Below, piece after piece: positions 8,273-60,100 of a stretch of 64,000 nt of DNA (its first letter is position 1; each line of letters starts with the position of its first letter). A program made the translations under genes and the position numbers. Under the pieces are notes generated by a model. It was not told the origin of the DNA, ran no database searches, and was given only the letters and a program-made list of their open reading frames with translations. The DNA comes from an uncultured Bacillota bacterium (GTDB lineage: Bacteria; Bacillota_I; Bacilli_A; RFN20; CAG-288): NCBI GenBank assembly GCA_949299015.1, contig CASFYT010000007.1:12636-76635 (forward strand). The letters are read 5' to 3'.

Positions 8273-11185
8273 ATGAAAGAAGAAGACATTAAGAAAATCA
8301 TCCATTCGTATCCGAGGAATGTCTACGGACAGCTTCAGACGTCGGCGCAGGGCCTTTCGGAAGAAGAGGTCCAGAGGCGGACGGAGCAGTTCGGAAAGAA
8401 CGAAATCACCAAGGAAAAGAAGACGCCGCTGTGGAAGACGTTTGTCTCCAATTTCATTTCGCCGATGGCCATCCTGCTGTGGATTGCCGGCGTCCTCGCC
8501 TTGGTGACGTCGTTCATCGGAACGAAGCCGGACGTGACGCTCCAGGATCCCCAGATGCTCTACCTTGCCGTCGCCATCTGGCTCGTCAACGTCATCAACG
8601 GAATCTTTTCCTTCCTCCAGCAGTTCAAGGCGGGAAAGATGACCGACGCGCTGGCCAAGATGCTCCCCCAGTATGCACGGGTCATTCGGGACGGGGAGGA
8701 GAAGAGAATCTCCGCGACGGAACTCGTCCCGGGCGACATCATGATCCTTGCGGAAGGCGACCGCATTTCCGCGGACGCGCGCATCCTGATGTGCGACGAC
8801 CTTTCCTGCACGCAATCGGCCTTGGACGGCGAAGCGACTCCGGCGCGCAAGACCCATGAGCCGCTCAAGGAGGACCCCGACTCCCTGGTCGGCGCCAAGA
8901 ACCTCGTCTTTGCGGGAACGAGCGTCTCGACCGGTTCGGCACGCTGTGTCGTCATCGCGACGGGGATGGAGACCGAATTCGGCAAGATCGCTTCCTTGAC
9001 GCAGAACATTCAGACGAAGAAATCCCCCCTGCAGAAGGAAATCGAGCGGGTGACGAAGGTCATCTCCGTCATCGCCTGCTCCGTCGGCCTTCTGGTCTTC
9101 CTCCTCGGCGTGATCGTCAACGGCGTCCAGGAGCAGAGCTTCCAGCAGCCGACGCTGTATCTGGAACAATTCGTCTTTGCCCTCGGCATGATCGTCGCCT
9201 TCATCCCCGAAGGCCTTTCGCCTACGGTCACGCTCTCCCTGGCCAAGGCGGTCCAGAGAATCGCCAAGGACGGCGCCCTGATCAAGTCCCTGACCTCGGT
9301 CGAGACGCTCGGATCGGCGACGGTCATCTGCTCCGACAAGACGGGGACCCTGACGAAGAACGAGATGACGGTCAAGTCCCTCTACCTGGCGACGAACGTC
9401 CTTACGGTCACGGGAAACGGCTATTCCCCGGAGGGGCATATCGTCGATGAGACCGGCAAGGAGCACACGGGGCAGAACGATTCGGCCCTGAAGATGCTTT
9501 TGACGATCGGAGGACTTTGCTCCGATGCGCGTCTGATTCCACCCAGCCCGGACGGAGAGAACCGACACTATACGGTCCTTGGCGATCCGACCGAGGCCTG
9601 CCTCAGCGTGGCGGCGGAAAAAGGCCTTGTCAGTCCCGGAAACCAGCTGAACCTCATGCCGCGCATCCGGGAGCTGAACTTCGATTCCGTCCGGAAGCGG
9701 ATGTCGACGATCCACCAGCTGGATCGGACCATCGACGGCGCCCAGCGGATCAGCTTCACCAAGGGCGCGCCCAAGGAGGTCCTGGAGCGCTGTTCCTTCA
9801 TCCTCGACGGCGGCAAGGTCCGCCCGATCACCGAGGAGGACCGGAGGAAGGCGATGGACCAGAACGACCGCTATGCCCGTGACGGCCTCCGCGTCTTGGC
9901 CATGGCCTATCGACTCCTGAAGAAGGATGCCGACATCCCGGTCGCTCTCTCGGCCTATACCCCGGAGATCATCGAAAAGGAGATGGTCTTCGTCGGCCTG
10001 GAGGCGATGCAGGATCCGCCGCGGGAAGGCATCAAGGAAGCCATCGCCCAATGCCATCGCGCCGGCATCAAGGTCATCATGGTCACGGGAGACTATGGCC
10101 TGACGGCCTTGGCGATTGCCAAGAAGATCGGCATCGTCCATTCGGACAAGGAGATTGCGGTCATCACGGGAGCGGACCTGGCCAAGATGAGTGACGACGA
10201 GCTCAAGGAAAAGCTCAAGGGAGAGGTCCTCTTTGCCCGCATGGCTCCGGAACAGAAGTATCGCGTCGTGACCTGCCTCCAGGAATTGGGCGAGATCGTG
10301 GCGGTCACGGGAGACGGCGTCAACGATGCCCCGGCCCTGAAGAAGGCCGACATCGGCGTGGCGATGGGCATCACGGGCACGGACGTGGCCAAGGATGCGG
10401 CCGACATGATCCTGACCGACGACAACTTCGCCTCCATCGTCAAGGCGATCATGGAGGGAAGGACGGTCTACAGCAACATCAAGAAGTTCATCACCTACAT
10501 CTTCAATTCCAACGTGCCCGAAGCGATTCCGTTCCTGCTTCCGACCCTGACCGGGAACCTCGTCCCTCAACCTTTGACCATCATGGAAGTCCTCTTCGTC
10601 GACCTGGGAACGGACCTTGTTCCGGCCCTGGGCCTGGGAGCCGAGCTTCCCAACGACAGCGTCATGGACGAGAAGCCCCGTTCCAAGGATTCCCATCTGA
10701 TCGACAAGGCCCTCCTGGGCCGTGCCGGCTTCTATGGCCTTCTGACATCGGCCCTGGCGTTGGCGGCCTACTTCCTCTTCATCCTCTTCAACCAGACCCC
10801 GGGAACGCCCTTCCAATTCTTCAGCAGCGAGAACGATCCTTCGCTCTGGATGTCCTCGACGGCCGTCGTCATCGTCTCGATCGTCTTCTGCCAGATCGGC
10901 ATGGGGTTCAACTGCAGGACGGAGAGGGAGTCGGTCTTCAAGCTGGGACTCTTCTCCAACAAGCTTTTGGGCATCGGCCAGATCCTGGAGGTCGTCCTGG
11001 TCCTTGCCATCGTCTTCGTCCCGTGGATCAACACGGAAATCTTCCAGGCCTACAACATCACGACGTGGCAGATCTGGTTGATCCTGATCAGCTTCCCCTT
11101 CCTCGTCTTCTTCCTTGAGGAGGGGAGAAAGGCTCTCTTGCGTCGGAAGGAAGAAAAGCGAACAGGAAAGGAGAAGGCACTATGA
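8273..11185 (+). CDS. P-type cation-transporting ATPase, type II, with Na,K/H,K-ATPase-like (IIC-like) transmembrane signatures
   Basis: CSDKTGTLT phosphorylation motif, TGDGVNDAPALKKADIGVAMG hinge, PEGL in M4, SNVPEAIPFLL and VDLGTDLVPALGLGAE in M5/M6. AAGGGAGGG RBS before the ATG at 8273. Confidence 0.9.
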   Translation: MKEEDIKKIIHSYPRNVYGQLQTSAQGLSEEEVQRRTEQFGKNEITKEKKTPLWKTFVSNFISPMAILLWIAGVLALVTSFIGTKPDVTLQDPQMLYLAVAIWLVNVINGIFSFLQQFKAGKMTDALAKMLPQYARVIRDGEEKRISATELVPGDIMILAEGDRISADARILMCDDLSCTQSALDGEATPARKTHEPLKEDPDSLVGAKNLVFAGTSVSTGSARCVVIATGMETEFGKIASLTQNIQTKKSPLQKEIERVTKVISVIACSVGLLVFLLGVIVNGVQEQSFQQPTLYLEQFVFALGMIVAFIPEGLSPTVTLSLAKAVQRIAKDGALIKSLTSVETLGSATVICSDKTGTLTKNEMTVKSLYLATNVLTVTGNGYSPEGHIVDETGKEHTGQNDSALKMLLTIGGLCSDARLIPPSPDGENRHYTVLGDPTEACLSVAAEKGLVSPGNQLNLMPRIRELNFDSVRKRMSTIHQLDRTIDGAQRISFTKGAPKEVLERCSFILDGGKVRPITEEDRRKAMDQNDRYARDGLRVLAMAYRLLKKDADIPVALSAYTPEIIEKEMVFVGLEAMQDPPREGIKEAIAQCHRAGIKVIMVTGDYGLTALAIAKKIGIVHSDKEIAVITGADLAKMSDDELKEKLKGEVLFARMAPEQKYRVVTCLQELGEIVAVTGDGVNDAPALKKADIGVAMGITGTDVAKDAADMILTDDNFASIVKAIMEGRTVYSNIKKFITYIFNSNVPEAIPFLLPTLTGNLVPQPLTIMEVLFVDLGTDLVPALGLGAELPNDSVMDEKPRSKDSHLIDKALLGRAGFYGLLTSALALAAYFLFILFNQTPGTPFQFFSSENDPSLWMSSTAVVIVSIVFCQIGMGFNCRTERESVFKLGLFSNKLLGIGQILEVVLVLAIVFVPWINTEIFQAYNITTWQIWLILISFPFLVFFLEEGRKALLRRKEEKRTGKEKAL

Positions 11186-11832
11186 AAGCAATCGTCATCG
11201 GATGCGGAAGGCTTGGCTCGGCCATCGCCCTCGAACTCTTCCGAAAGGGAAACGAAGTGACGGTCGTCGACCGCGACCCCGACAGCTTCGCCCTCTTGGG
11301 AAACGAGTTCAACGGCAATACCATCGTCGGCATCGGCTTCGACAAGAACGTCCTTGAGGAAGCGGGCATCCAGTTCCAGGATGCCGTCATCTGCACGACG
11401 GACTCGGACGAGGTCAACGTCCTCTGCGGAAAGATCAGCAAGGACATCTTCATGGTCCCTCAGGTCATCGCCCGCCTCTATGATCCGCGCAAGGCCAAGA
11501 TCTTCGAGAGCCTGGGCATCAAGACCATCTCGACGACCGGCTACGGCGTCGACCGGGCCATCGAGCTGCTCAGCTACGACAAGATGGATTCCATCGCCCT
11601 TTTGGGGGCGAAGGGCGACACGGAACTGGTCCGCATCCATGCGACGACCAACGTCGAGGGCGCGACCGTCCAGGAGCTGACCTCGCCGGGAGAGTTCTCC
11701 CTTCTGGCCATCGTCCGGAACAAGGATTCCTTCCTGCCGAAGGCGGAGGACGTGGTCAAGACGGACGACATCCTCTACTTTGCCGTCAACATCCAGAAGA
11801 AGCACAAGCTGAAAGTGGTTCTTGGAATCTAG
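11182..11832 (+). CDS. TrkA/KtrA-type RCK protein (NAD-binding N domain + TrkA_C)
   Basis: Rossmann motif IGCGRLG at the N-terminus. 216 aa. The start ATG overlaps the ATPase stop (ATGA). Confidence 0.85.
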   Translation: MKAIVIGCGRLGSAIALELFRKGNEVTVVDRDPDSFALLGNEFNGNTIVGIGFDKNVLEEAGIQFQDAVICTTDSDEVNVLCGKISKDIFMVPQVIARLYDPRKAKIFESLGIKTISTTGYGVDRAIELLSYDKMDSIALLGAKGDTELVRIHATTNVEGATVQELTSPGEFSLLAIVRNKDSFLPKAEDVVKTDDILYFAVNIQKKHKLKVVLGI

Positions 11833-11844
11833 GAGGAAAAGGAT

Positions 11845-12519
11845 ATGAAAGTCATCATCATCGGCGGGGGACAGGTCGGAACGTACATGGCCGACCTCCT
11901 GATCAAGAACCACTGCCAGTTCGTCATCATCGAAGAGAACAGGGAACGGGTTCACAAGCTTCGGGAACGCTACGGGGAGGATCATGTCCTTCTCGGCAAC
12001 GGCACTTCTCCGACGATCCTGGAATCCGCCGAATGCGACAAGGCCGACGTCGTCACCTGCGTCACGGGCGCCGACGAGGTCAACCTCGTCGCCTCGACCA
12101 TCGCCAAGTTCGAGTTCCAGGCGCCGCGGGTCATCGCCCGCGTCAACAATCCGGTCAACGCCTGGCTGTTCAACCTCGGCATGGGGGTCGACGCTTCGGT
12201 CAACCAGGCCGACATCATCTCCCACATGGTCGTCGAGGAGATGTCCATGAAGTCCTTGATGACCCTGATGCAGCTCTCGCGGGGCGGCTATTCCATCATC
12301 CAGCTGACGGTCCAGGAGCAGAGCCAGGCCGTCGGCAAGGCCATCAAGGACATCCTCCTTCCGTCCTCATGCCTGATGATCGCCATCTACCGGGGCGAGA
12401 CGATGCTCATCCCGCACGGGAACACGTCGATCTTCCCGGGAGACAAGATCATGCTCTTCTCCGACGTCAAGGCACACGAGAAGCTCGAGGAGCTCTTCGG
12501 GCACGCCAAGGTCCACTGA
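11845..12519 (+). CDS. TrkA/KtrA-type RCK protein, second copy
   Basis: IIGGGQVG Rossmann motif and a C-terminal TrkA_C-like segment (..GDKIMLFSD..). AGGAGGAAAAGG RBS. Confidence 0.85.
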   Translation: MKVIIIGGGQVGTYMADLLIKNHCQFVIIEENRERVHKLRERYGEDHVLLGNGTSPTILESAECDKADVVTCVTGADEVNLVASTIAKFEFQAPRVIARVNNPVNAWLFNLGMGVDASVNQADIISHMVVEEMSMKSLMTLMQLSRGGYSIIQLTVQEQSQAVGKAIKDILLPSSCLMIAIYRGETMLIPHGNTSIFPGDKIMLFSDVKAHEKLEELFGHAKVH

Positions 12520-12538
12520 CCTTGGCGGATCGTCGATT

Positions 12539-12567
12539 GAGGCAGGGGATCCCCTGCCTCATTTTTT
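12539..12567 (+). terminator. Rho-independent terminator after the trkA pair
   Basis: Perfect 22-nt palindrome GAGGCAGGGGATCCCCTGCCTC followed by ATTTTTT. The stop codon of the convergent gene (12559-12561) lies inside the hairpin. Confidence 0.65.
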
Positions 12568-15126
12568 CTTTGTCTTCTTCCCGGTCAGGCAGGGCCAAAG
12601 GCCGAGCAGGGGAATCAGGGAGGCGAGGAACAGGACGAGGAGGTCGTATCCGGTGACGAAGAGGCGCACGGCGGAGACGGCATTGAAGATCGCCAGGGAG
12701 ATTCCCCAGAGGGCGGTCGACAGGGCAAGGGCGCAGAGGGACGGGAGGGCGGCGGAGAGGCCGAGCAGGAGGGTCCTCTGCGGGCGGGTCCGGTAGACGC
12801 GGTCGATCGGAAGCCGGTCGCGGTTCTGGATCCAGGCGAGGGAAATCTGCCAGAGGAGGACTCCGACGACGATTATGGAAAGATAGGGGAACCAGTAAGG
12901 GGACAGGGATAAGATGCGTTGGAGGGAATCATCGTAGTCATACCAGTCATAGCCATCAAACTGAAAGCCGGTATCAATGTCCAAGACACGGAGGAGGCTT
13001 TCCTCATCGGTCGGTGTCAATATTGTGTTGCCCTGGAACGGGAAAAGATCCATTTCCGAATAGTTTTCTTTTCCAATGGTCAGACGGCTCCGCTCATCGA
13101 GGGTGAATCCAACGACGAGGAGTTCCTTGCCCGGAACATAATCGTTATCCTTTTCCACCTTCCACGTTCCGTCTGTCCAGAATGTGGAATGGTTTCGAAA
13201 ATTGGCGATGACGGTTTGAAAGTAGATTTCTGCAAGCTTATCGGAAAAGAAGGGGTTGGAAAGAGAACCATAGTAGGTGATGTAAAGAAATTCATCCTGA
13301 AGATAGTCTTGGAATATCACTCTTTTGTCCTCGTCAGGAATCGTTTCTGGAGTCTCTGCTCCTTGATTTTGATAATATTCGCTTATATTGGGCGCCATTG
13401 CTTTAGGACAATTGGAAAACGCATAGTCGATGGCGTCCTTAGTACTGATGAGATCGATGGCGTTGTCTCGGAGAATCTCGGCAAAAAAATGACGTGGTGT
13501 TGCTCGGATGACGAAATCCTGGTGACTTGGATGATACGATCCCGGAATGACAAATACCTCAGTCTTATCATCGGTCAGATAATCCAGAAAGTAATAATAT
13601 GGGATGAGAATTTCGTTTTTTCCAAGATTGTTCTTTCCTTGATTGAAGAATAGATTGCCATAATAGGAAGAAGAGAAAGGGGTTATGAAAGGGTAACCTT
13701 CGGTATACTCCAAACAAACGCTTTCTTTGGTCTTGTCATTTTTCAGAATAGGGCTGCCAGGCAATGTCGTTGTAAATTGGATGGGCATGCGATTGTCAAG
13801 CATGAACTCATAAAAGGAAGGGGAGATATAGGCGGCATCAAGAATGGGTGACATCGAATTCATGTCAGAGCTGGCATCATACCGAAGTCTGGAAAAGTTG
13901 ATAAAACCGCAGATGTGAGGATAGTATCGCCGTGTACCAGACACGATTTCGATTGGTTTTCCAATGAGAAAATCCATACTTGGATTTGAAAATCTTTCTC
14001 CGGTCAGTGGATTTCGATATCCATTATCGGTTAGTACCATATATTGTTCTTTTGTCATGACGATATCGTGTTGATCATAGGGGAATGTCCCGGCGTCCAG
14101 CTGGCAGATGGAACGCAAACCGGGCAAAAAAAGATTGATCGAGCTACTCCAGGAATCATCAAGTCGAACCCTTGCTACTCCTTGCTGGATTGATGGAGTG
14201 CCAATGATGCCAGGGATGTCGTAGAGGTTTTTTGTTTCTTCGATGGAATTGATATTCAAATCCATTACCGGTTCCTTGTAGTTTCTCGCGAAGTAATCAT
14301 TCTTAATTTTGCTATCATCCCTCGTTTGATACGTTATAGAAAATCCAAGGAAAGATGAGAGAAGAACAAAGAATCCGAAGAATGCTAGAGTTAGGCAGCT
14401 GTGCGGAAGATAGCGCTTTAGATGCCGAAGGGCCGAGGCGGCCTTTCTTTTGGGGAGGAGTGGAAGGCGAAAGCTGTTCTCGAAGCACAGAGGATCGATT
14501 TTGTTCATCACAAGGCATTGTTTGGATGTCATCCTCACTTCGAAGTCAACGTCTCCAAGGGAAATGTCTGCTTCCGTAAAGACAAGAAAAAGGGAAGAAT
14601 TTTTTCTCTTATGCACCTCGCTTCGGAGGATCTCATTTTCGCAAAGTTCGAAGGCGTTTAGAACGATGTTCAAGGGGGTCTGGCGGACGAAGGCACGTGC
14701 AAATTGCGCTAGGATCCTTTGGGAAGGGGAGAGTTTTGCAACGGCGGAATTCCTCATCCCTGCCAAACCAAGTTTCTGCAGAGTCTTTTGAATGATGTCA
14801 CTTGAAGAGCCGAACTCATTTTTTTGTTCTCCAAGAGCCAGAAGGAGGTTTTCCTCCAGCGTCCATTGCCAATTCCAAGAGTCGGAGCAATTGACGATGG
14901 AGATGTTGTGGAACACGAAGTCTTGCTTTTCAGAAGAAGACAGGTCAGAGAGATCCGTTTCATCGAATCGACAGGAGTAGGAAGAAGTCTTTTTTCGGAG
15001 GCAGATGGCATGAACTAAGGAGTCTCGATCTTCTTTCGAACAATGGATGAGAACCAGCCCTTTGGCAGGAAGGGAAAGAGAATGACAGGGTCGGCCGTCC
15101 GTTCCTAATTTCTCAATATCAATCAT
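12559..15126 (-). CDS. MacB/FtsX-architecture membrane protein with a degenerate N-terminal ABC ATPase-like domain
   Basis: The N-terminal ~210 aa keep an ABC signature-like LSPSQRILAQFARAF, but Walker A is replaced (..IHCSKEDRDS..) and Walker B D-E becomes N-A (IVLNAFE). One TM (LTLAFFGFFVLLSSFLGF) follows, then ~480 aa of extracytoplasmic sequence and 3 C-terminal TMs. GGGGAG RBS 8 nt before the ATG at 15126. Low GC. Confidence 0.65.
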   Translation of the reverse strand: MIDIEKLGTDGRPCHSLSLPAKGLVLIHCSKEDRDSLVHAICLRKKTSSYSCRFDETDLSDLSSSEKQDFVFHNISIVNCSDSWNWQWTLEENLLLALGEQKNEFGSSSDIIQKTLQKLGLAGMRNSAVAKLSPSQRILAQFARAFVRQTPLNIVLNAFELCENEILRSEVHKRKNSSLFLVFTEADISLGDVDFEVRMTSKQCLVMNKIDPLCFENSFRLPLLPKRKAASALRHLKRYLPHSCLTLAFFGFFVLLSSFLGFSITYQTRDDSKIKNDYFARNYKEPVMDLNINSIEETKNLYDIPGIIGTPSIQQGVARVRLDDSWSSSINLFLPGLRSICQLDAGTFPYDQHDIVMTKEQYMVLTDNGYRNPLTGERFSNPSMDFLIGKPIEIVSGTRRYYPHICGFINFSRLRYDASSDMNSMSPILDAAYISPSFYEFMLDNRMPIQFTTTLPGSPILKNDKTKESVCLEYTEGYPFITPFSSSYYGNLFFNQGKNNLGKNEILIPYYYFLDYLTDDKTEVFVIPGSYHPSHQDFVIRATPRHFFAEILRDNAIDLISTKDAIDYAFSNCPKAMAPNISEYYQNQGAETPETIPDEDKRVIFQDYLQDEFLYITYYGSLSNPFFSDKLAEIYFQTVIANFRNHSTFWTDGTWKVEKDNDYVPGKELLVVGFTLDERSRLTIGKENYSEMDLFPFQGNTILTPTDEESLLRVLDIDTGFQFDGYDWYDYDDSLQRILSLSPYWFPYLSIIVVGVLLWQISLAWIQNRDRLPIDRVYRTRPQRTLLLGLSAALPSLCALALSTALWGISLAIFNAVSAVRLFVTGYDLLVLFLASLIPLLGLWPCLTGKKTKKK

Positions 15127-15140
15127 CAATCAATCTCCCC

Positions 15141-17780
15141 TTAGCTCATCCCTTCGAAAAGCAAGGTTATTCCGCCATACATCATCGGATCATTGCAGGA
15201 AAGTTCAAGAAAATAGACCTTGTTGGCTTCTATGCGCATCTCAGTTCCTATGCCGATGCAATCCGAATCATATCGGCTTAAGACATAAGAGGATATGAGG
15301 ACGGACAGTTTTACTTCTGGAACCAAAGATGTCGAGTAATTCAAGCCAACTGTAAACCGGATTTGCTTTGTTGATTGCTGGCGGATTAAGAAACAGACCG
15401 TTTTGTTCCTTAAACTATATATCTCCAATTCATTTTTCTCGTTTCCCTTTCGAATTTCTGGCAAGTAGGTCTCTTTAACGACATCTAGATAGAATTCAGT
15501 GCGAGATGTGGGATTCCCCATTCCAGTCACGATGAAATAGTCTGTGTTGGCACGAAGGTAAACAACAAAGCCGGCAGCAAGATTTCCAAAGCTGTCATCA
15601 TCGCTCATGAGCTCTGTGTAATTGGAATCCAGAAGCATCAAGGTCGTATCGAGTGATTGCGCTACATATTCTGGTCTGGCAAAAATCGTGTAGAGCCCGT
15701 CTTCAGGAGCATAAAAATGATTCGTGGAATAGCATCCTCTGTATTCGATTTTCTGGGACAGTCTTTTCAGTCCTGTAGTGGGGAAAGAGGGTAGACCGGG
15801 ATTCGCATAGTAGATTGACAGCTCCGCTTGCCCAAATTTCTTTTCCTGTAGATTCGATTCACTCCAAAGTGATATATTGTAGGTCTTGTTCGCAGAGAAA
15901 TGAATGCATCTTTTGATGCTGACATACGGAGAGACTGCGTATTTGGTGTTGCTGCTGAATGGTTCAAGGATTTCTATTGAACCGAATTTTTCAGTTTCAC
16001 CGTCTATAGAGAAACAAAAATTCCTAGGCAATTGTGTAAAAACAAGGTTATAATTTCCTGAAAATGGTGGTGAAAACTGAAAAACGAATGGTGATGCTCC
16101 GCCAAAGACCGCATAATTTGGTTCTGATAGTTTCAATTCTTGGGGTGGAAAATTGACTATCTCTCCAAAAAGATAACTCCATTCCCCTTCCATTGATTGA
16201 ATTTCCGTGGCTGTGCCATATCCAGTATCGTTTCGAATTTCGAACTTCAATTCATGGGAAATGAGAGCGACATAGTCATCGCTCAATTCTGAAGATAGTA
16301 TTTGTGCTCCAAACGACATGCTATCGGTGCTGTCCTTGAAAAGCAATACCGAATCTTTGAGCTTAGGAGGCGTAATAGAAGCATACTTCTTTTTATCGGA
16401 TTCCTGAAAGTTGGTCGATGAAGTAATGGTATTATCTGTCCAGGTGTATTTATTGTTTCCGTTACTCACATATTGACTATCCTTATATGTACATAATACT
16501 TCCTCGATGGTATCTGTAATGACGGAGTACAGTGTACCGATAATGAATTGTGATAGTGTTGATAAACTGCTTGTCATTGCTCCTAAAGCAAGATTTCCGA
16601 GGAAAAAAGCTGCTTTAGTCATGATTTCTAGATTTGACGTATCTGGAATTTGGCCGATCAGGGCACAGCAGATGTTTCCCAGTCCGTATCCATAATCGGT
16701 ATCAAAGTCATAATCTGAAGCGCCTGGATTCGGGTGGTGGGCCTGGTTTTGGTTATCGGCAAGATCGACATAGGCCAAACCCATTTCGTATTCGGGATTG
16801 GCAATGCAATATGTGTTGTCAACGTCGGCTCTGACGACGTTGAAGTCATAGTCGTATCGATAGTTCTTGTGGAGGACGTTTTTGACGGTGACGATATCCT
16901 TCGTGGTCTCGTTCGCCTTGATCTGCTCGAGGTCGAAGATGAGGACGCTGCTTATCTTGTTGTTCCCATAGTCGGTATAGGTGTTGATGAAATAGCCCCA
17001 TTCCAGTCCGAACCTTTGATGCATGCCGGTCTGCTGAAAGTATGGTTTCGGAATCAAATTGACGATGCCGTCGTCGGAAGTGGGGAGCAGCTGGGAGCCA
17101 AATGGCAAGGAGGGAGCCTCGATGCCCCTGTCCATGTTTTGAAGATAGTCGTCGAGCAGGGACTGGTTTCCCGTAAAATCACTTTCGTTATCGTCAGCGC
17201 TCATTTTTGCGATTTCGGGTTCTTGGACCGACGATTTATAGTTCGCCTCTACGTTTAAGGAGTACAGCATTCGCGAATAGGTTTCTTCGTCTGGGCTGCG
17301 CGGTGATACATGTTGTTCGATTTGTGCGAGACGAGAGGAGGGAATCGGGAAAAACGTCTGATAGAGCCCGCCTTCCCTTTTCTCTATTGTCTCGATGACG
17401 CAGGAAGAGGAACTGAGGTCCGACATCCCGTAGAAATCGTAGCTGCCGGGGGTCATGATCGCCTTGGCTTCTAGAAGGGACGGCTCGGCGCCGTCAAGAA
17501 CATCGGCGACATAAAAGGAGTTGCTGCCGGTGTCGTATCGGTACAATGTGTATCGACTCAGCGTGTCCATGATGGCGTCGACGTCCTTGCTGACGGCGAC
17601 ATGGAATCCTTCCGGCAGTTCCTCCTCGAAAGAGCGGCTGGTCCTGTCCGTGGACAGGACCGCCTGAGCCCTTTCCATTCGCGTGTCTCCTCCGGCGTCA
17701 CGGATGCCGAAAGGTGTCATGGAAGTGCCACAAAACAGGAAAATCAGGAAAGAGGAGAACAGAAACGTCATCTTTTTCAT
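15141..17780 (-). CDS. Large secreted protein of unknown function (879 aa) with C-terminal beta-sandwich (PPC-like) modules
   Basis: Signal peptide MKKMTFLFSSFLIFLFCGTS from the ATG at 17780. No catalytic motif recognised. The C-terminal segment (..LYTIFARPEY..LMLLDSNYTELMSDDDS..AGFVVYLRANTDYFIVT..) resembles pre-peptidase C-terminal domains. Very low GC, ~33% in one hand-counted sample. Confidence 0.7.
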   Translation of the reverse strand: MKKMTFLFSSFLIFLFCGTSMTPFGIRDAGGDTRMERAQAVLSTDRTSRSFEEELPEGFHVAVSKDVDAIMDTLSRYTLYRYDTGSNSFYVADVLDGAEPSLLEAKAIMTPGSYDFYGMSDLSSSSCVIETIEKREGGLYQTFFPIPSSRLAQIEQHVSPRSPDEETYSRMLYSLNVEANYKSSVQEPEIAKMSADDNESDFTGNQSLLDDYLQNMDRGIEAPSLPFGSQLLPTSDDGIVNLIPKPYFQQTGMHQRFGLEWGYFINTYTDYGNNKISSVLIFDLEQIKANETTKDIVTVKNVLHKNYRYDYDFNVVRADVDNTYCIANPEYEMGLAYVDLADNQNQAHHPNPGASDYDFDTDYGYGLGNICCALIGQIPDTSNLEIMTKAAFFLGNLALGAMTSSLSTLSQFIIGTLYSVITDTIEEVLCTYKDSQYVSNGNNKYTWTDNTITSSTNFQESDKKKYASITPPKLKDSVLLFKDSTDSMSFGAQILSSELSDDYVALISHELKFEIRNDTGYGTATEIQSMEGEWSYLFGEIVNFPPQELKLSEPNYAVFGGASPFVFQFSPPFSGNYNLVFTQLPRNFCFSIDGETEKFGSIEILEPFSSNTKYAVSPYVSIKRCIHFSANKTYNISLWSESNLQEKKFGQAELSIYYANPGLPSFPTTGLKRLSQKIEYRGCYSTNHFYAPEDGLYTIFARPEYVAQSLDTTLMLLDSNYTELMSDDDSFGNLAAGFVVYLRANTDYFIVTGMGNPTSRTEFYLDVVKETYLPEIRKGNEKNELEIYSLRNKTVCFLIRQQSTKQIRFTVGLNYSTSLVPEVKLSVLISSYVLSRYDSDCIGIGTEMRIEANKVYFLELSCNDPMMYGGITLLFEGMS

Positions 17781-17802
17781 ACCATTTGCACCTCTTGCCC
17801 TT

Positions 17803-17831
17803 ATTATATGCCTCCTTGCAATTGGTGACAA
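17803..17831 (-). promoter_or_regulatory. Sigma-70-type promoter for the low-GC operon
   Basis: On the minus strand: TTGTCA (17831-17826), 17-nt spacer, TATAAT (17808-17803), about 20 nt upstream of the ATG at 17780. Confidence 0.55.
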
Positions 17832-17853
17832 GGCGATGGAGGCCCTTGCGCTC

Positions 17854-20800
17854 CTATTGTGCGAGTTCCTGGAGTGTCTGGACCAGGAACAGCAGGTCGG
17901 CAAGGTAGTCTTTCGTCTTGGTCAGGAGAAACTCGAACTGCTTCTGACGGATCTTGACGCGCAGCTTGCCGAAGAGGGGACGGAGCTCTTCCTCGAGCTT
18001 CTTGTACAGCATCGGATGGCAGGAGAAGTCCTCGCTGGCAAGCAGGTCGTAGACTCCAAGGCCCTCCTGGAAGGAGGAGAAGATTCCGCTGTCGAGGACG
18101 ACCTCGATCTGTCTCTTGACGAGGAGGTTGGCCACCTCTTCGGGATAGGGGCCGTAGACATCCCGGAGCTTCCTTCCGAAGCGGGCGATCTCCTCCTTGC
18201 TTTGGCAATCGGAGAGTTCTCGATACATCGTGATCCGCTGTTCTTCGCTTCCGTAGTCGCTGGGGATGTGGGCGTCCAGGGAGAAAGAGAGCTCGAAGCG
18301 GTTGCGGACCTCCTCCCCTTCCTTCCCCCTCTCGGCGACGTCCTTCTCCTTGAGGACCTCGTGGAGCAGGTCCATGTAGGCGTCATAGCCCAGGGAGTCG
18401 ACGAATCCGGCCTGCTCGGACCCGAGGATGTCGCCGGCGCCGCGGATGTTGAGGTCCTGCATGGCGATCTTGTATCCGCTGCCGAGCTCGGCAAAGTCCT
18501 TCAGGGCCTTGAGCCGCTTCTTGGCCTCGTCGGTGATCTTTCCGGAACTTCGGAAGAAGAAGTAGGCATAGGCGAGGCGGTCGCTTCTTCCGACCCTTCC
18601 CTTGATCTGGTAGAGCTGGGCCAAGCCGAAGCGGTCGGCGTTCTCGACGATGATCGTGTTGACGTTGGGAATGTCGAGTCCCGATTCGATGATGGACGTG
18701 CAGACGAGGATGTCGATTTCTGCGGCATAGAAGGAAGACATGATCTGCTCGATCTTTTCGTGGTCCATCCGCGCATGGACGACAGCGATGCGGGAAGTCG
18801 GAAACATTTTCTCAAGCTTTGCCGAAGTCGAAAAGATTGTCTGAATATCGTTATGAAGGAAATAGATTTGTCCCTTTCGCTGCAGTTCCTTCTGGAGGAC
18901 TTCTTCGATCAGGTCCCAGTCCATCTTGGCGACGTAGGTCTTGACGGGCATGCGGTTGACCGGCGGCTGTTCCAACAGCGAGAGGGAGCGGACGTGGAGG
19001 AGGGACATCTGCATCGTGCGGGGGATGGGGGTCGCCGTCAAAGTCAGGCAGTCGACGTTGCGGCTTCGTTCCTTGATCTTCTCCTTGTGGGCGACGCCGA
19101 ATTTCTGCTCCTCGTCGATGATCAGGAGCCCGAGGTCCTTGAACTGGATCGCATCGGAAAGGAGGCGGTGCGTTCCGATGACAAGGTCGACCTCTCCGTT
19201 TTGGACCCGTTGAATGTTCTTCTTCTGCTCCTGCTCCGTGACGAAGCGCGAAAAGACGCAGACGCGGACGCCGAAGCTCTCGAAGCGGGCCTTGGCGACC
19301 TTGTAGTGCTGGTCGGCCAGGATGGTCGTCGGGCAGAGGAAGGCGACCTGCTTGTGGGCGAGGATCGCCTTGAAGGCGGCATAGAAGGCAATCTCGGTCT
19401 TGCCGAAGCCGACGTCGCCCGCGATCAGGCGGTCCATCGGATAGGGCGATTCCATGTCCTTCCGGACGTCGTCGATGGCCTGGAGCTGGGAATCCGTGTA
19501 GGGATAGGGGAAGGAGTCCAGGAAGGACCTTTCCAGTTCCTCCTCGCGCGGAAAGGCGAAGCCGACCTGGCTCTGCCTCTGGGAATAGAGGGAGAGGAGC
19601 TGGTCGGCAAGGAAGGAGATCCGACTTCGGATCCGCGACTTCTTGCGGGACCAGGTCGATCCGCCCAGGCGGTCGAGGGCAGGGGCGTGGCCTTCGCGGG
19701 AGGCATACTTCCGAATCAGTCGGTATTGGCTCAGGGGAAGATAGAAGACGGCCTGTTCCGCATACTGGATCTTCAGGTATTCGAGGCCGTCGAGCGTCGC
19801 GACGCCCAGGTACCTTCCGACGCCGTGGACCTCGTGGACGACGTAGTCTCCGACCTGAAGGTCCTCGTAGCGACGGATGACCTTGCTCTCCTTGTAGCGG
19901 GAGAGGAAGCGGGACTTCTGGTCGCTGACGCCGTAGATTTCCTTGGCGGACAGGTAGGCGTGCTTCTCCTTCGGAATCTCGAAGCCGTGGGTCAGCTTGC
20001 CTTCGATGAGCATGACGTCCTCGTGCTTCGGCTCGACGCCATAGGGGATTTCCCGCTCCTGCAGGTAGTTCTGGAAGTTGGTCAGATTGGGTTCGGGAAG
20101 GACGATGCGGACCTTGTAGCCTTCGCTTCGATACTGGCGCAGGACCTGGTCGCTTTCGGCGTAGCTCAGGGCGCGGTAGGAATTCTCGCGGAGGAGGAAT
20201 TCCCGCTCCATGTCGCCGTCGGCCCTTTGGAAGGACGCCCAGTCCGGGTTCTTCCGAAGGTAGATTCCCTCCCAGGGAAGGGAAAAGCCGGAGGAGACGC
20301 TTCTTCGGAAATATTCCTCTTCCTTCTTCCAGCTGTCCTTGAGCGCAGAGACGACGTCCTTGGGACGGTAGAGATAGCAGAGATAGTCCCCCTTGACGTA
20401 GTCGAGGAGGGTCCCCTCCGCTGGACAGAAGAGGGGAAAGAAGCGCTGGTCGACGCTTTTGAGATATCCCCTTGCAGCCTGGGAAAGCAGGAACCCAAGG
20501 CGCTCGGAGAGGTCATCGTAGGCCTGCCGCTCCACCCTGCCTTCGATTTGGGAAAGCGCCCTTTGAATCAGGACCTCGCCCCTTTCCTTCTCTCCTTCCT
20601 CAAGGAGGAAGAGCGTCGCCGGATGGAGGTCGACTTCTTCGACATGCCTGAAGGACATCTCGTCTCGGACGTCGAAAAGGCGGATGTCGTCGATTTCGTC
20701 TCCGAAGAACTCGATGCGGATCGGCGAGGAAGAACAGGGATCGAAGAGGTCGATGATGCCACCCCTATGAGCAAATTCACCCGCATGTTCGACGCGATTG

Positions 20801-21288
20801 ACAAAGGTATATCCAAGTCTTGAAACCCTTTGCCTAAATTTGGTCAGTGAAATAAAATCCCCTTTATGAAGATGAAGGATGTTCTTTTCGTATCTCTCCT
20901 TCGGAAGGATGTTCATGATGCTGGAAGAGACATGGGAGACGAGGATGGAAGGGCGGTCGGAAAAGAGGGAGGAGACGGCCAGAAGGCGCTCCTCGTCCAT
21001 CTCGGGGGAGACGCCGATGGCGGAGGTACGGAAGATTTCGTCGAAGGGGAAGAAGTAGCATTCGTCCTCCTGGACGTAGTCTCCGAGGAACTGATAGAAG
21101 CTCTCGGCTTCGTAAAGGGTCGGAAAGAGGAAGAACATCTTCCTCTTCCGGTCGTTGAAGGAGAGCGCGGCAAGCATCGCCAAAGCTTCCGGGGAGGAGA
21201 CGAAGACATCCTCTCCGCGGTCCAGCTTCTGTTCGTTTTCGTCGTGGAAGAGGTAGGTGAAGAGGGAAAGCTTGTTGAGGACGGCCAT
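17854..21288 (-). CDS. mfd: Transcription-repair coupling factor
   Basis: ~1144 aa. UvrB-homology N-terminus, CarD-like RID (GDYVVHEVHGVGRY), SF2 helicase motifs (GDVGFGKTE, DEEQKFG), TRG motif region. The ATG at 21288 shares one nt with the pth stop (TGATG). Confidence 0.95.
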   Translation of the reverse strand: MAVLNKLSLFTYLFHDENEQKLDRGEDVFVSSPEALAMLAALSFNDRKRKMFFLFPTLYEAESFYQFLGDYVQEDECYFFPFDEIFRTSAIGVSPEMDEERLLAVSSLFSDRPSILVSHVSSSIMNILPKERYEKNILHLHKGDFISLTKFRQRVSRLGYTFVNRVEHAGEFAHRGGIIDLFDPCSSSPIRIEFFGDEIDDIRLFDVRDEMSFRHVEEVDLHPATLFLLEEGEKERGEVLIQRALSQIEGRVERQAYDDLSERLGFLLSQAARGYLKSVDQRFFPLFCPAEGTLLDYVKGDYLCYLYRPKDVVSALKDSWKKEEEYFRRSVSSGFSLPWEGIYLRKNPDWASFQRADGDMEREFLLRENSYRALSYAESDQVLRQYRSEGYKVRIVLPEPNLTNFQNYLQEREIPYGVEPKHEDVMLIEGKLTHGFEIPKEKHAYLSAKEIYGVSDQKSRFLSRYKESKVIRRYEDLQVGDYVVHEVHGVGRYLGVATLDGLEYLKIQYAEQAVFYLPLSQYRLIRKYASREGHAPALDRLGGSTWSRKKSRIRSRISFLADQLLSLYSQRQSQVGFAFPREEELERSFLDSFPYPYTDSQLQAIDDVRKDMESPYPMDRLIAGDVGFGKTEIAFYAAFKAILAHKQVAFLCPTTILADQHYKVAKARFESFGVRVCVFSRFVTEQEQKKNIQRVQNGEVDLVIGTHRLLSDAIQFKDLGLLIIDEEQKFGVAHKEKIKERSRNVDCLTLTATPIPRTMQMSLLHVRSLSLLEQPPVNRMPVKTYVAKMDWDLIEEVLQKELQRKGQIYFLHNDIQTIFSTSAKLEKMFPTSRIAVVHARMDHEKIEQIMSSFYAAEIDILVCTSIIESGLDIPNVNTIIVENADRFGLAQLYQIKGRVGRSDRLAYAYFFFRSSGKITDEAKKRLKALKDFAELGSGYKIAMQDLNIRGAGDILGSEQAGFVDSLGYDAYMDLLHEVLKEKDVAERGKEGEEVRNRFELSFSLDAHIPSDYGSEEQRITMYRELSDCQSKEEIARFGRKLRDVYGPYPEEVANLLVKRQIEVVLDSGIFSSFQEGLGVYDLLASEDFSCHPMLYKKLEEELRPLFGKLRVKIRQKQFEFLLTKTKDYLADLLFLVQTLQELAQ

Positions 21289-21848
21289 CAGCGGTTGTAG
21301 ACGTTCATCGCCTTCTCGAAGGTGAACTTCAGGCTGTATTCCAGGGCTTCGCAAGCCTTCGAGATCCCATCCTTCCAGGCATCGTAGACCTCTTTGTCCC
21401 GGGGGGCGGAAAGGACGAAGTCGGGCGTGTTCTGCATCTGCGGCCTTCCGATTCCGATGCGGATGCGCTTGAAGTCCTCGCTCTGGAGGGTCTGGATGAT
21501 CGACTTGAGGCCGTTGTGTCCTCCCGCGGACCCCTTGAGCTTGAGTCGGACGTGCCCCGGATCGGTATCCATGTCGTCGACGAGGACGAGGATGTCCTCC
21601 TTGGGAATCTTATAGAAGCGCATCGCCTCGCCGAGGGCGATGCCCGAGAGGTTGACGTAGGTCAGCGGCTTGAGCAGCAGGACGTCCTCTCCGAAGGCCT
21701 TTCCCTTTCCGACGAGGGAGTGGAAGTCCTTGCGGCGGATGTCGATCCGGAAGTCTTCGGCGAAGAGGTCGAGGGCCTGGAAGCCGGAGTTGTGCCTCGT
21801 GTCCCGGTAGATGTCTCCGAAGTTTCCGATGCCAAGGATCAGCTTCAT
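21288..21848 (-). CDS. pth: Peptidyl-tRNA hydrolase
   Basis: MKLILGIGNFGDIYRDTRHNSGF N-terminus and the GGHNGLKS motif. Confidence 0.95.
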   Translation of the reverse strand: MKLILGIGNFGDIYRDTRHNSGFQALDLFAEDFRIDIRRKDFHSLVGKGKAFGEDVLLLKPLTYVNLSGIALGEAMRFYKIPKEDILVLVDDMDTDPGHVRLKLKGSAGGHNGLKSIIQTLQSEDFKRIRIGIGRPQMQNTPDFVLSAPRDKEVYDAWKDGISKACEALEYSLKFTFEKAMNVYNR

Positions 21849-39019: not shown

Positions 39020-40706
39020 GTCCATTTCCTTCCAGTCCTACCTGGATCCTTTCCTGGAGCAGGGGATGAAGCCTTCCAAGGCCAGAAGGGCCCTGGGCAA
39101 GGAAGCCCGCCGGCTTTTCCGCGGCGATGCGACCCTCTTTGCGAAGTATGGCGTCGAAGACGAGGCCGGGGCGATGCGCAAGGCGGACAAGATCATCGCC
39201 TGGCTGGGGAAGGATGCCCTGACGTTGGCGGAGACGGATTCGACGGACGTTCCTCTCTCCTCCCTGACGGATACGAAGGAAGGGGATTTCGAATATACGG
39301 CCGAAGAAAAGAAGGAAAGCTTGGACAGGATCTTCCGCGAGAAGCGAAGGAATCGCCAAGTCCGAATCGTCGTCGACGGCATCAAGAACGTCATGACTTA
39401 CCTCTTCTCCTTCCTTTCCATCCTCGTCCTTGTCGGCATCGTCTACTACTGCGTCTCGACGGGAGGTTCGACCTTCTCAGGGGAATTCATCGTCGGCGAC
39501 GACCAGCCGATGCAGGTTTCCGCCAGCATGGACAATGACGATGCGGTTTCCCCGGATTTGTCCTTCGAAGCTCCGGAAGGATTGTCGGAAGAGAGCGCCT
39601 TCTCTTACCGCTGGGGAGTTGTCATTGAAGATTCAGTAGGAACGAATAGTGAACATGCCTTGACGATAACTTATGTCGATCCAGATTCTCCATTTCATGA
39701 ATTGAGGGATGACGACGATGTTCCGATCGACTTCACTTCCAACTTCAACATCTCCTACCTCTCGGCCTATACGGACTTCGACGCGGAAGCCGGGGGCATT
39801 CAGATCGGTGCCATCAATCCGAGGACCGACGATGCGGCTTCGGCGGTGAGCAAGCTCGAGGGCTTCCAGCTGATCTTCGATGCGGGGTTCGAGCTTGGCG
39901 GCGGCGGAATCCGCGGTCCGCTCCTGGCTACGCTTTACCTGGTCTTGTTTGCCCTTCTCTTCTCCCTTCCCCTGGGCATCGGAGCCGCCATCTATCTCTC
40001 GGTCTATGCGAAGAAGAACCGGCTGACCAATGTCATTCGGACGTTGATCGACATGATTTCAGGCATTCCGTCGATCATCTTCGGCTTGGCCGGCGCCATC
40101 ATCTTCATCCCGATCTTCTCGGGAGGTACGGGAATCGGAAACATTCTCTCAGGAGCCGCGACCCTGGCCTGCATGGTCCTTCCGACCATCATAAAGAATA
40201 CGGAGGAAGCGATCTATGTCCTTCCTCCTTCGCTCAAGAGCGCTTCCCTGGCCCTCGGTGCGAGTCAGACGCAGACGGTCTTCAAGGTCATCCTGCCGAA
40301 CTCGATTCCCGGCATTCTGACGGGCGGCCTGCTTGCTATCGGCCGCATCATCGGCGAATCCGCGGCGTTGATCTTCGCGACGGGAACGGCCATCAAGGAC
40401 GTCATCACGCCGACGACGGGAAACGTCTCGACGTTGGCCGTCTACATCTGGCGGTCGGTTTCCGGCGTCGAAAACCCGAACTATCAGGCGGCGACGGCCG
40501 CCGCCATCCTGATTCTGATCGTGGTCCTGATCCTGAACGTCACGGTGAAGCTGATTGCCTCGAAGCTCGACAAGTTCACCCCCAAGCCACCCAAATCCTG
40601 GGTGAGGCGACTCTTCGATCGGATGGTTCGGAATTGGCGAGCCAAGAAGGAAGTTCGCAAGGAGCTTTTGCAGGAAACAAACGGAGGTTCAAACCATGGA
40701 CAATGA
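39012..40706 (+). CDS. pstA: Phosphate ABC transporter permease PstA, expanded (564 aa)
   Basis: The C-terminal ~280 aa are PstA-like (..[21 protein letters not shown]..). They are preceded by a ~130-aa cytoplasmic extension and a ~150-aa acidic extracytoplasmic insert. The ATG at 39012 overlaps the pstC stop. Confidence 0.85.
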
Positions 40707-41502
40707 GATTCAGGAAGGGGCGACCCCCATCTTCGAACAGCAGGAAGGGGAGGAGAAGGTCATCTTCGAGTCCCGCCACCTCAACCTTTTCTATGACGAC
40801 CAGCAGGCGCTCAAGGACATCAACATCAAGATCTACAAGAACAAGGTCACGGCCTTCATCGGCCCTTCCGGATGCGGAAAGTCGACGTTCCTCCGTTGCT
40901 TCGACCGGATGAACGACCTCATCGACGGCTGTCGGGTCGAGGGGGAATTGCTCTATAATGGAGTCGACATCAAGACGATCAATCCGATTCTCCTCCGCTC
41001 GAAGGTCGGAATGGTCTTCCAGCAGCCCAACCCCTTTCCGATGTCGATCCGGGACAACATCACCTATGGTCCCCGCTGCCAGGGAATCCGGGACAAGAAG
41101 TATCTTCATCAGCTCGTCATCGACTCCCTCAAGGAGGGGGCGCTCTACGAGGAGGTCAAGGACCGCCTCAAGTCTTCGGGCATGGCGCTCTCAGGTGGAC
41201 AGCAGCAGCGTCTCTGCATCGCGCGTTGCGTTGCCATGAGGCCGGACGTCATCCTGATGGACGAGCCGACTTCGGCTCTGGATCCGATCGCCACCAAGAA
41301 GATCGAGGACCTGATCCAGAAGCTCAAGGAAAAGTACACGATCATCATCGTAACCCACAACATGCAGCAGGCGACGCGCGTCAGCGACTACACCGCCTTC
41401 TTCATGATGGGAGAGCTGGTCGAATTCAATCGGACGGAAGAATTCTTCTCCCACCCGAAGGAAAAGAGGAGCAACGACTACATCACGGGTCGCTTCAGCT
41501 GA
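40696..41502 (+). CDS. pstB: Phosphate ABC transporter ATP-binding protein
   Basis: GPSGCGKST Walker [14 protein letters not shown] signature and [11 protein letters not shown] Walker B. Confidence 0.95.
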
Positions 41503-46423: not shown

Positions 46424-46529
46424 GGGGACGGAAGACTCATCATATTTTGATAAATACGCTCAAAAGGTCAGGGAGAGACGGGCACAAAAAAAGACCCAGT
46501 GACACAATTCAACAATTGCGGCTGGGCCT

Positions 46530-49787: not shown

Positions 49788-49876
<89 letters not shown>

Positions 49877-60071: not shown

Positions 60072-60100
60072 GGGCAGGCCGGGTGCCTGCCCTTTTACTT
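60072..60100 (+). terminator. Rho-independent terminator after the SOR gene
   Basis: GGGCAGG-CCGGGTG-CCTGCCC followed by TTTTACTT. Overlaps the stop of the convergent 958-aa gene. Confidence 0.6.

Follow-up and report, generated by a model that had tools for sequence, protein, structure and literature searches.

We studied two adjacent genes in a 64-kb stretch of DNA from an uncultured Bacillota bacterium (GenBank assembly GCA_949299015.1, contig CASFYT010000007.1, positions 12,636 to 76,635). We call this whole stretch the window, and coordinates are positions within it unless another locus is named. The two genes, here called sec and perm, lie between mfd and trkA. The first encodes an 879-amino-acid protein that is predicted to be secreted. 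The second encodes what we consider, with high confidence in the architecture, to be a highly diverged, fused ATP-binding cassette (ABC) protein of the MacB/FtsX type (type VII), and its nucleotide-binding domain (NBD) has lost every catalytic motif. Type VII ABC systems (MacB, LolCDE, FtsEX, BceAB, and YbbAP) are defined by ATP-powered mechanotransmission. We see a roughly even chance that perm is a membrane scaffold for the surface protein sec that works independently of ATP hydrolysis. We also propose, tentatively and with more doubt than confidence, that a whole clade of MacB/FtsX-type proteins has turned into pseudo-ATPases, in which both halves of the ATP site are destroyed and the NBD fold is kept, and that this clade is coupled to a dedicated secreted partner; its NBDs may have died more than once. 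A preliminary description, made from the DNA letters alone, had already put forward a dead-NBD MacB/FtsX protein with a large secreted partner. That central idea held up: perm is homologous to clear ABC relatives (E = 4.9e-19), its motifs are lost, and the pairing recurs in 11 locus types. Co-transcription of the two genes is predicted.

We begin with the architecture of perm. Hydropathy and alignments give the order NBD, transmembrane segment 1 (TM1), a large extracytoplasmic domain (ECD), and three more TM segments. This matches the MacB topology in the preliminary description, which had put the ECD at ~480 amino acids. (All of the following features are on the minus strand.) The pseudo-NBD, supported by profile homology and Foldseek, is at 14515-15090 (about amino acids 14-205, in an 856-residue numbering from TTG 15129). 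TM1 is at 14341-14397 (amino acids 245-263; hydropathy 2.17), and it aligns with TM1 of a canonical fused NBD-FtsX protein, P0007, and with TM1 of the perm relative at locus L020. Between TM1 and TM2 is the ECD of ~485 amino acids (12886-14340; amino acids 264-748). Over its first subdomain, it aligns to the ECD of P0007, including the pattern LLxGxxP...EIxLT...GKxI...IxG. The C-terminal bundle (12586-12885; amino acids 749-848) has hydrophobic segments at 749-767, 786-818, and 830-848, and is probably of FtsX type, given its position and the homology of its relatives.

Homology was reached through intermediate relatives, because a profile of perm and its sole close homologue has no significant match among PDB sequences (the best is LptB, with E = 0.66). 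Alone, perm has no match in Pfam (neither ABC_tran, PF00005, nor FtsX, PF02687), and its relative P0002 likewise has no match to PF00005. PADLOC also gave no match for perm alone. In NCBIfam, perm alone has sub-threshold matches to ABC ATPases (LolD, FtsE, CcmA, and a bacteriocin ABC family; E = 0.003-0.1), all in register at amino acids 33-156, and in PHROGs it has a single match, to "ABC transporter" (E = 4.7e-4). The informative relatives, found beside sec homologues in other genomes, are proteins of ~950 amino acids that match ABC_tran in Pfam (E = 1e-7 to 6e-11). P0127, P0140, P0151, and the partners at L006 and L007 pass PF00005 with 32-43 bits, versus a cutoff of 25. At the position that corresponds to the C-terminal bundle of perm, FtsX (PF02687) matches the L006 partner (25.6 bits, cutoff 25.5), P0140 (E = 5e-4), and the L020 partner (in precomputed Pfam results).

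We compared these proteins with hhalign. The profile of perm and its close homologue aligns to the ~950-amino-acid ABC_tran/FtsX relatives with a probability of 99.1 (E = 4.9e-19; 566 columns). It also aligns to the L020 partner, which has an intact NBD, with a probability of 97.3 (E = 2.1e-11; 714 columns, from the NBD to TM2). The profile of the family aligns to P0007 with a probability of 99.8 (E = 1.2e-27) across the NBD, TM1, and the first extracytoplasmic subdomain. P0007 and P0008, which are the nearest canonical relatives, bear both ABC_tran and FtsX in Pfam. Among NBDs in the PDB, the family profile matches YtrE (E = 1.8e-25), MacB (1.2e-20), LolD (1.7e-20), and FtsE (3.6e-16), with BceA also falling within 1e-25 to 1e-16.

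Structural modeling points the same way. The AlphaFold 2 (AF2) model of perm has a mean pLDDT of 48.5, and 60-83 over the NBD (amino acids ~15-210). Foldseek superposes the modeled N-terminus (~195 amino acids) on BceA, YbbA, LolD, FtsE, and YtrE with TM-scores of 0.62-0.68 and root-mean-square deviations of 3.3-3.8 Å; the NBD of YbbA (9ge7_B) reaches 0.68. A caveat on this superposition is that the alignment used for modeling contained canonical members. The preliminary description had named profile and Foldseek searches as the way to check its reading of perm, and these bear it out: the NBD homology emerges via relatives (E = 4.9e-19, as above), and the top Foldseek match of the model is full-length MacB.

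We then examined the catalytic motifs of the NBD, whose positions were taken from an alignment of perm with P0007, P0008, and MacB. In place of a canonical Walker A (GKSGSGKST), perm has HCSKEDRDS (15019-15045, minus strand; amino acids 29-37), so that the glycines of the P-loop and the Lys-Ser/Thr are gone. The signature LSGGQ is aligned to LSPSQ (14719-14733, minus strand; amino acids 133-137). The remnant of Walker B is NIVLNAFE (14647-14670, minus strand; amino acids 154-161), with Asn158 in place of the aspartate and Ala159 in place of the catalytic glutamate. The alignment agrees with the motif readings of the preliminary description (Walker A, LSPSQ, and an N-A pair in Walker B) and extends them: the Q-loop has cysteine instead of glutamine, and the H-switch has glutamate instead of histidine. 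Judging from these substitutions, perm should be unable to bind and hydrolyze ATP in the canonical way. Since Walker A and the signature are both lost, neither a homodimer nor a pairing with a competent partner could form a canonical composite ATP site.

The same is true of most of the family. Of 11 types of partner that are found next to a sec homologue, 10 lack Walker A, LSGGQ, and the DEP motif; the partner at L020 retains all three. The outgroups (P0007, P0008, and MacB) keep intact motifs. A dead NBD thus appears to be the majority state of a family with at least one intact member, and not an accident of one gene. In crude neighbor-joining trees (without support values), the intact L020 partner groups with the outgroups, and the sec protein of L020 nests among lineages with dead partners. 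This hints that the NBD was inactivated more than once, but does not establish it. A literature search (PMC open access and bioRxiv) turned up no report of a type VII ABC protein whose NBDs are fully dead, which is not proof of novelty.

The association between the two genes is also not limited to the window. We found sec followed by a partner from the perm family, with a spacing of -4 to +257 nt, in 11 distinct types of locus (the window, L002, L003, L005, L006, L007, L015, L020, L021, L022, and L023; the contigs have 27-56% GC). If the pair was real, then the preliminary description expected it to recur as neighbors elsewhere, and it does. There are variations. L003 (5016-14075) has sec and two tandem dead-NBD partners, of 961 and 949 amino acids. 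L007 (9986-19191) has a gene of 320 amino acids that matches only the N-terminal domain of sec, followed by a dead-NBD partner of 971 amino acids. And in L007, L016, and L015 (11618-14437), canonical NBD-FtsX genes with intact motifs (938/939 and 649 amino acids) are convergent to the module and directly downstream of it.

These intact neighbors raise the question of whether a dead-NBD protein could still be part of an ATP-driven machine, either as a heterodimer with a competent paralogue or by recruiting a separate ABC ATPase. Many ABC transporters have degenerate sites (PMC11466899), and the pseudo-NBD is under constraint, as described below. But given how ABC proteins work, the loss of both Walker A and the signature would leave neither composite site complete in a head-to-tail dimer. 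Furthermore, there is no such paralogue near the module in the 64-kb window, where the sole ABC ATPase nearby is the one of a BPD_transp_1 importer (40696-41502), and both of the tandem copies in L003 are dead. We consider an ATP-driven machine of this kind unlikely.

Some other observations concern the surroundings of the module. UBA784-type genomes hold several copies of it. L009 and L012 are on one rumen-type contig (ERZ808286 NODE-15), which has two complete modules ~20 kb apart. In L002 (12585-18878, GCA_002436825.1), the module is directly upstream of a type II-A CRISPR-Cas locus (Cas9, Cas1, Cas2, and Csn2). Genes for potassium uptake (trkA/trkH) adjoin the module in the window (11182-12519) and also in the distant carriers L003 (14137-17122) and L005 (10691-13242).

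To see how perm evolves, we can compare the window to L001, a contig from a sister species. The two are syntenic (ATPase-trkA-[perm]-mfd-pth), with perm at the identical site between mfd and trkA. The flanking proteins are 81-95% identical, with dS of 0.47-0.84 and dN/dS of 0.05-0.16. In comparison, perm (855 amino acids in the window and 862 in L001, at 9327-11915) is just 43% identical, with dN = 0.48, dS of ~1.8 (which is saturated), and dN/dS of ~0.27. In other words, perm exceeds its flanking genes by a factor of 4-13 in dN and of 2-3 in dS. The high dS could arise because synonymous sites in perm are much less constrained, or because its alleles are older than the split between the species (allelic replacement); either would do.

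Despite the rapid divergence, perm is under net purifying selection, as indicated by its dN/dS and by full-length open reading frames (ORFs) in spite of a dN of 0.48. Conservation also varies by domain: between the window and L001, identity is highest in the TM bundle (64%), intermediate in the pseudo-NBD (47%), and lowest in the ECD (38%). The pseudo-NBD is conserved above the ECD and is not decaying freely. In the alignment of the family, Asn94 (in an "ENV"-type segment after the Q-loop) and Ala144 and Arg145 (in an ARA helix after the signature) are invariant.

These results bear on another explanation, which is that the module is a decaying relic of a functional ABC operon, with its genes drifting towards pseudogenes. 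This would account for the high dN of perm relative to its flanks, for the loss of all catalytic motifs, and for the lack of sec in the sister species. It would also account for a GC content at third codon positions (GC3) that is far under the norm for the genome, as would follow from a lapse in selection or in biased gene conversion. But intact ORFs of 855 and 862 amino acids persist in two species at 43% identity, with dN/dS of ~0.27, and the conservation is structured by domain (TM over NBD over ECD). Full-length partners with dead NBDs are found beside sec in 10 locus types, from genomes with 27-56% GC, and the module in the window retains a good match to a promoter as well as ribosome-binding sites. 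A relic is, in our judgment, improbable.

The composition of the two genes is unusual for this genome. Together, sec and perm have a GC content of 0.463, as compared to 0.563 for the remainder of the window, and 1-kb windows at 13-17 kb have 0.42-0.46. The preliminary description had reported this drop from counts of short samples, and we find it to be seated at third codon positions: GC3 is 0.54 for perm and 0.52 for sec versus 0.76-0.90 in six flanking genes, and GC at second positions is alike. The discontinuity in GC3 is sharp, and its edges coincide with the two genes. The preliminary description also allowed that low GC might turn out to be typical of surface-protein genes. Within the window this is not so for envelope genes in general, as its other membrane-protein genes keep GC3 values of 0.74-0.83.

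Was the module acquired horizontally, as the preliminary description inferred? The anomaly in GC3 is real, and all of the relatives of the module are in lower-GC genomes, so horizontal acquisition is plausible. However, L001 has perm at the same site, and its GC3 there is 0.54, equal to that of perm in the window, so any acquisition was not recent. More specifically, the presence of perm between mfd and trkA predates the split of the two species. (sec is absent at L001, and a search of that locus for a remnant of sec found none.) Two causes of the low GC3 are equally possible: the genes may have come from lower-GC relatives and be incompletely ameliorated, or weaker selection may hold them at an equilibrium of their own.

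A more specific version of this idea is that the module is a recent genomic island with toxin, bacteriocin, or defense cargo, with perm as an exporter or an immunity protein. The break in GC3 is bounded exactly by sec and perm, the copy number and the neighbors of the module vary between genomes (with the CRISPR-Cas9 locus beside it in L002), and the best NCBIfam match of perm is to a lactococcin-972-type bacteriocin ABC ATPase, although with E = 0.003 only. But of the usual signs of an island, just the deviation in composition is present. We searched the flanks of the module for integrases, transposases, tRNAs, RNA families, and direct repeats, and found nothing beyond repeats at chance level, as the preliminary description had also noted for integrases, transposases, and flanking repeats. 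Nor is the module wholly absent from a close relative, as L001 holds perm at the same site and lacks only sec; since the flanking genes have dS of 0.5-0.8, the insertion predates the split. PADLOC has nothing for either protein, and PHROGs has nothing for sec and just the weak, generic match for perm (4.7e-4). Finally, a dead ATPase cannot power export. We view a recent island with such cargo as very improbable.

We then turned to the sec protein, which the preliminary description had called an orphan. This label was wrong: an exhaustive profile search found 380 relatives, including 40 cluster representatives with E < 1e-30, and most are 850-960 amino acids long. (A word-indexed homologue search had made both sec and perm look near-orphan. 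For sec, the exhaustive search shows this to be a limit of sensitivity. An alignment of 4 sec sequences, which was used for scanning, matched mainly one species group.) There are no matches to sec in Pfam, PADLOC, PHROGs, or (above noise) NCBIfam, and a profile of sec has 0 matches among PDB sequences. sec belongs to an undescribed family, with a novel N-terminal region of ~540 amino acids followed by C-terminal beta-sandwiches that resemble the pre-peptidase C-terminal (PPC) domain.

The protein begins with a predicted signal or anchor segment, MKKMTFLFSSFLIFLFCGTSMT (17715-17780, minus strand; amino acids 1-22), whose hydrophobic part is at amino acids 4-22 (Kyte-Doolittle hydropathy, or KD, of 1.65). 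A hydrophobic segment at the N-terminus is present in most of 31 members of the family, which fits the signal peptide of the preliminary description. The most conserved core (16851-17075, minus strand; amino acids 236-310) has the pattern DDxIVNLIPK...GxEWGYF..TYxDY..NKISSVL.YD. In alignments of the family, Ile239, Gly258, Gly262, and Thr267 are invariant, and Asp236, Glu260, and Asp283 are nearly so. This segment recurs on its own in other unannotated proteins, and it matches no known family. Another feature is a pair of hydrophobic helices that are rich in glycine, alanine, and serine (16485-16631, minus strand; amino acids 384-432; two helices in the low-confidence model). The preliminary description had noted a long hydrophobic stretch in mid-protein. 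The stretch exists, and it exceeds a KD of 1.5 in about half of the family, but in the window protein it is below TM grade.

The C-terminal region (15144-16148, minus strand; amino acids ~545-879) is predicted to consist of beta-sandwiches, with a PPC-like module at amino acids ~690-775 (15456-15713). Positions 699-780 of the sec profile match proteins with 4-7 bona fide PPC repeats (PF04151). In a direct search with PF04151, the window protein has no match and just 1 of 31 relatives does (E = 0.035). So the PPC-like modules that the preliminary description saw are supported by transitive homology and not by a direct Pfam match. The AF2 model of sec, which was built from 4 sequences, has a pLDDT of 36.9 and is unusable; Foldseek with this weak model returns the C-terminal domain of CPE, the collagen-binding domains of ColG, and D3 of HA70, which are generic beta-sandwich modules only. 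Four relatives of sec match the NCBIfam model "beta-glucuronidase AbsR1", with 12-51 bits versus a cutoff of 650. Those matches cover the last ~90 positions of the model, and we attribute them to a shared accessory beta-sandwich and not to the enzyme itself.

What might sec do? Searches with Pfam and NCBIfam gave neither sec nor the 31 relatives a domain of the kind that partners of FtsEX have (a coiled coil together with a peptidoglycan hydrolase or LytM domain). This is consistent with the preliminary description, which saw no hydrolase motif. The types of domains that are present favor a role in binding or adhesion.

The likely host is relevant here. NrdD from the window is in a cluster, at 90% identity or higher, with Candidatus Enterosoma merdigallinarum. 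Ca. Enterosoma corresponds to RFN20 of family CAG-288 in GTDB, and has ~54% GC and a genome of ~1.4 Mbp (PMC8035907). RFN20 of CAG-288 is predicted to be deficient in peptidoglycan and free of sortases (PMC10868615). The other carriers of the module are uncultured gut Bacilli, RFN20- or "Mollicutes"-like, that are labeled as "Bacillales bacterium UBA784/UBA4682" or "Mollicutes bacterium". The preliminary description had compared the module to FtsEX with PcsB or CwlO. This analogy stands for the layout of the genes. A role in the cell wall like that of FtsEX-PcsB is unlikely, since members of the host's family are predicted to be without peptidoglycan, and a hydrolase domain is missing from sec.

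We can now describe how the module might work. Type VII ABC proteins with an extracytoplasmic partner include FtsEX with EnvC, PcsB, or CwlO, and YbbAP with TesA (PMC12646458). The ancestral pair would have worked similarly, with an ATP-driven change acting on a partner that is docked on the ECD, and the intact pair in L020 plausibly still does. The motor would then have been lost in most lineages, including that of the window. In the window, a protein of ~880 amino acids, with a novel N-terminal region of ~540 amino acids and tandem binding-type, PPC-like modules at its C-terminus, would be exported by the Sec pathway. perm would be translated from the same transcript as sec, and would retain the ABC fold, TM1, a large ECD, and a three-helix FtsX bundle. 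It would form a static, dimeric platform in the membrane that docks, retains, or positions sec on a cell that lacks peptidoglycan and sortases. The pseudo-NBD may have been kept as a structural or dimerization module. The fast divergence of the module, its variation in copy number, and the presence or absence of sec between sister species fit with a surface function that is exposed to hosts or phages.

Several points weigh against this scaffold. First, a dead P-loop may be compatible with non-canonical nucleotide binding. Second, the homology of perm's own C-terminus to FtsX is not significant alone (E = 0.015-0.034 in local hhalign of the C-terminal 135 amino acids). Third, we infer the docking of sec on the ECD, and both structural models are low-confidence (pLDDT of ~37 for sec and 48.5 for perm). 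Fourth, L001 has perm without an adjacent sec, and the divergent relatives of sec in L017 and L018/19 precede unrelated polytopic membrane proteins, not members of the perm family. So, perm can be kept without sec, and other proteins can take its place as the partner of sec. Finally, the host is probably wall-less, but the prediction in the literature is for the family and not for this genome.

The local arrangement of the genes is as follows. sec and perm are co-oriented ORFs on the minus strand, bracketed by trkA (11845-12519, plus strand) and mfd (17854-21354, minus strand). sec (15141-17780, minus strand) encodes 879 amino acids from its ATG, and public gene callers agree on this length. 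perm (12559-15126, minus strand) encodes 855 amino acids if it starts at ATG 15126, as in the public gene call, or 856 if it starts at TTG 15129. The gap of 11 nt between the ORFs in the preliminary description holds for the TTG start; the ATG start is more plausible. Several signals that were noted in the preliminary description were found again in the sequence. A predicted promoter for the two-gene unit, which resembles sigma-70 promoters (TTGTCA, 17 nt, TATAAT; 17803-17831, minus strand), matches 11 of 12 consensus positions. It is the top-scoring promoter-like site in 12300-18200 and lies between the stop of mfd (17854) and the ATG of sec (17780). This region has 8 promoter-like sites, as compared to 6.6 expected from shuffled sequences, which is no excess, so the argument for the promoter is positional rather than statistical. 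The putative ribosome-binding site of sec, AAGAGGTG (17789-17796, minus strand), is read from the sequence at 8 nt upstream of ATG 17780. For perm, GGGGAG (15135-15140, minus strand) comes directly after the TAA of sec (15143-15141), at 8 nt from ATG 15126 or 5 nt from TTG 15129. At the other end, trkA has a predicted intrinsic terminator (12538-12571, plus strand), with a hairpin (12538-12561; a 10-bp stem with 7 GC pairs) followed by a run of T. The block ends inside this palindrome: the stop codon of perm (12561-12559) is the first triplet of the hairpin, within the stem.

Elsewhere in the window, the sole Rfam family at the gathering threshold is a gene for a small bacterial SRP RNA (RF00169; 56.9 bits; 49789-49873, plus strand). 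A stretch of ~730 nt (~46440-47170) is poor in ORFs and has a local dip in GC; it lies between a pseudouridine-synthase-like gene (from reading of its translation only) and an HPr-like gene. It has no match in Rfam even at E ≤ 0.1, and its folding energy is ordinary (z = -1.08). There is also an ORF of 958 amino acids without a Pfam match (60095-62971, minus strand), whose GC3 of 0.61 is the second-lowest among the long genes of the window.

What is new here is a family of ~880-amino-acid proteins that had no annotation and comprises 40 or more diverged cluster representatives. perm and its relatives retain a motor domain even though every catalytic motif is lost, and they are linked to one partner gene, which makes them a system for asking what an NBD does without burning ATP. 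The L020 relative, with its intact NBD and the same partner, is a natural control. The module may be a means for gut Bacilli without peptidoglycan or sortases (RFN20) to hold large surface proteins. If our proposal is true, then perm represents a mechanotransmission ABC machine that has become a pseudoenzyme, and it would serve wall-less gut bacteria by anchoring or presenting surface proteins of an undescribed class. In practical terms the module is of moderate importance, as the carriers are uncultured commensals and the proposed function is inferred.

How does the module compare to known systems? Degenerate NBDs are known from heterodimeric exporters (TM287/288, TAP, and CFTR) and from the fused NBDs of RbsA and NupO (PMC11466899). 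As in perm, the lysine of Walker A, the catalytic glutamate, and the signature are lost, and the fold is kept. In those proteins, however, one composite site is degenerate and the other is catalytic, whereas perm has a single type of NBD that lacks both Walker A and the signature, which leaves no canonical site in a homodimer.

MacB (from E. coli or A. actinomycetemcomitans; PDB 5lil and 5nik) has the same domain order as perm (NBD, TM1, ECD, and three TMs), and the NBDs are of one subfamily (E = 1.2e-20 by profile). But of the two, perm alone is without all of the motifs for binding and hydrolyzing ATP. The ECD of perm is about twice as long (~485 amino acids), and only its first subdomain can be aligned. 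Also, there is no MacA-like adaptor or TolC here. The host is monoderm and probably wall-less, and a conserved gene for a secreted partner of ~880 amino acids is found instead.

FtsEX is similar to perm-sec in that an FtsX-type membrane protein is genetically coupled to an extracytoplasmic partner (PcsB, CwlO, EnvC, or RipC), and no substrate is transported. However, FtsE is a separate and active protein, while the NBD of perm is fused and dead. And the partners of FtsEX have coiled coils along with CHAP, NlpC/P60, or LytM domains that act on peptidoglycan, while sec has none of these domains. Another comparison is to YbbAP-TesA from E. coli (PMC12646458). YbbA is separate and active as an ATPase, and TesA is a small hydrolase of the SGNH type whose catalytic site is defined, while sec has 879 amino acids and no recognizable catalytic domain. 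Nevertheless, a type VII gene adjoins the gene for a secreted partner that docks on the external domain, and perm and sec have the same gene layout.

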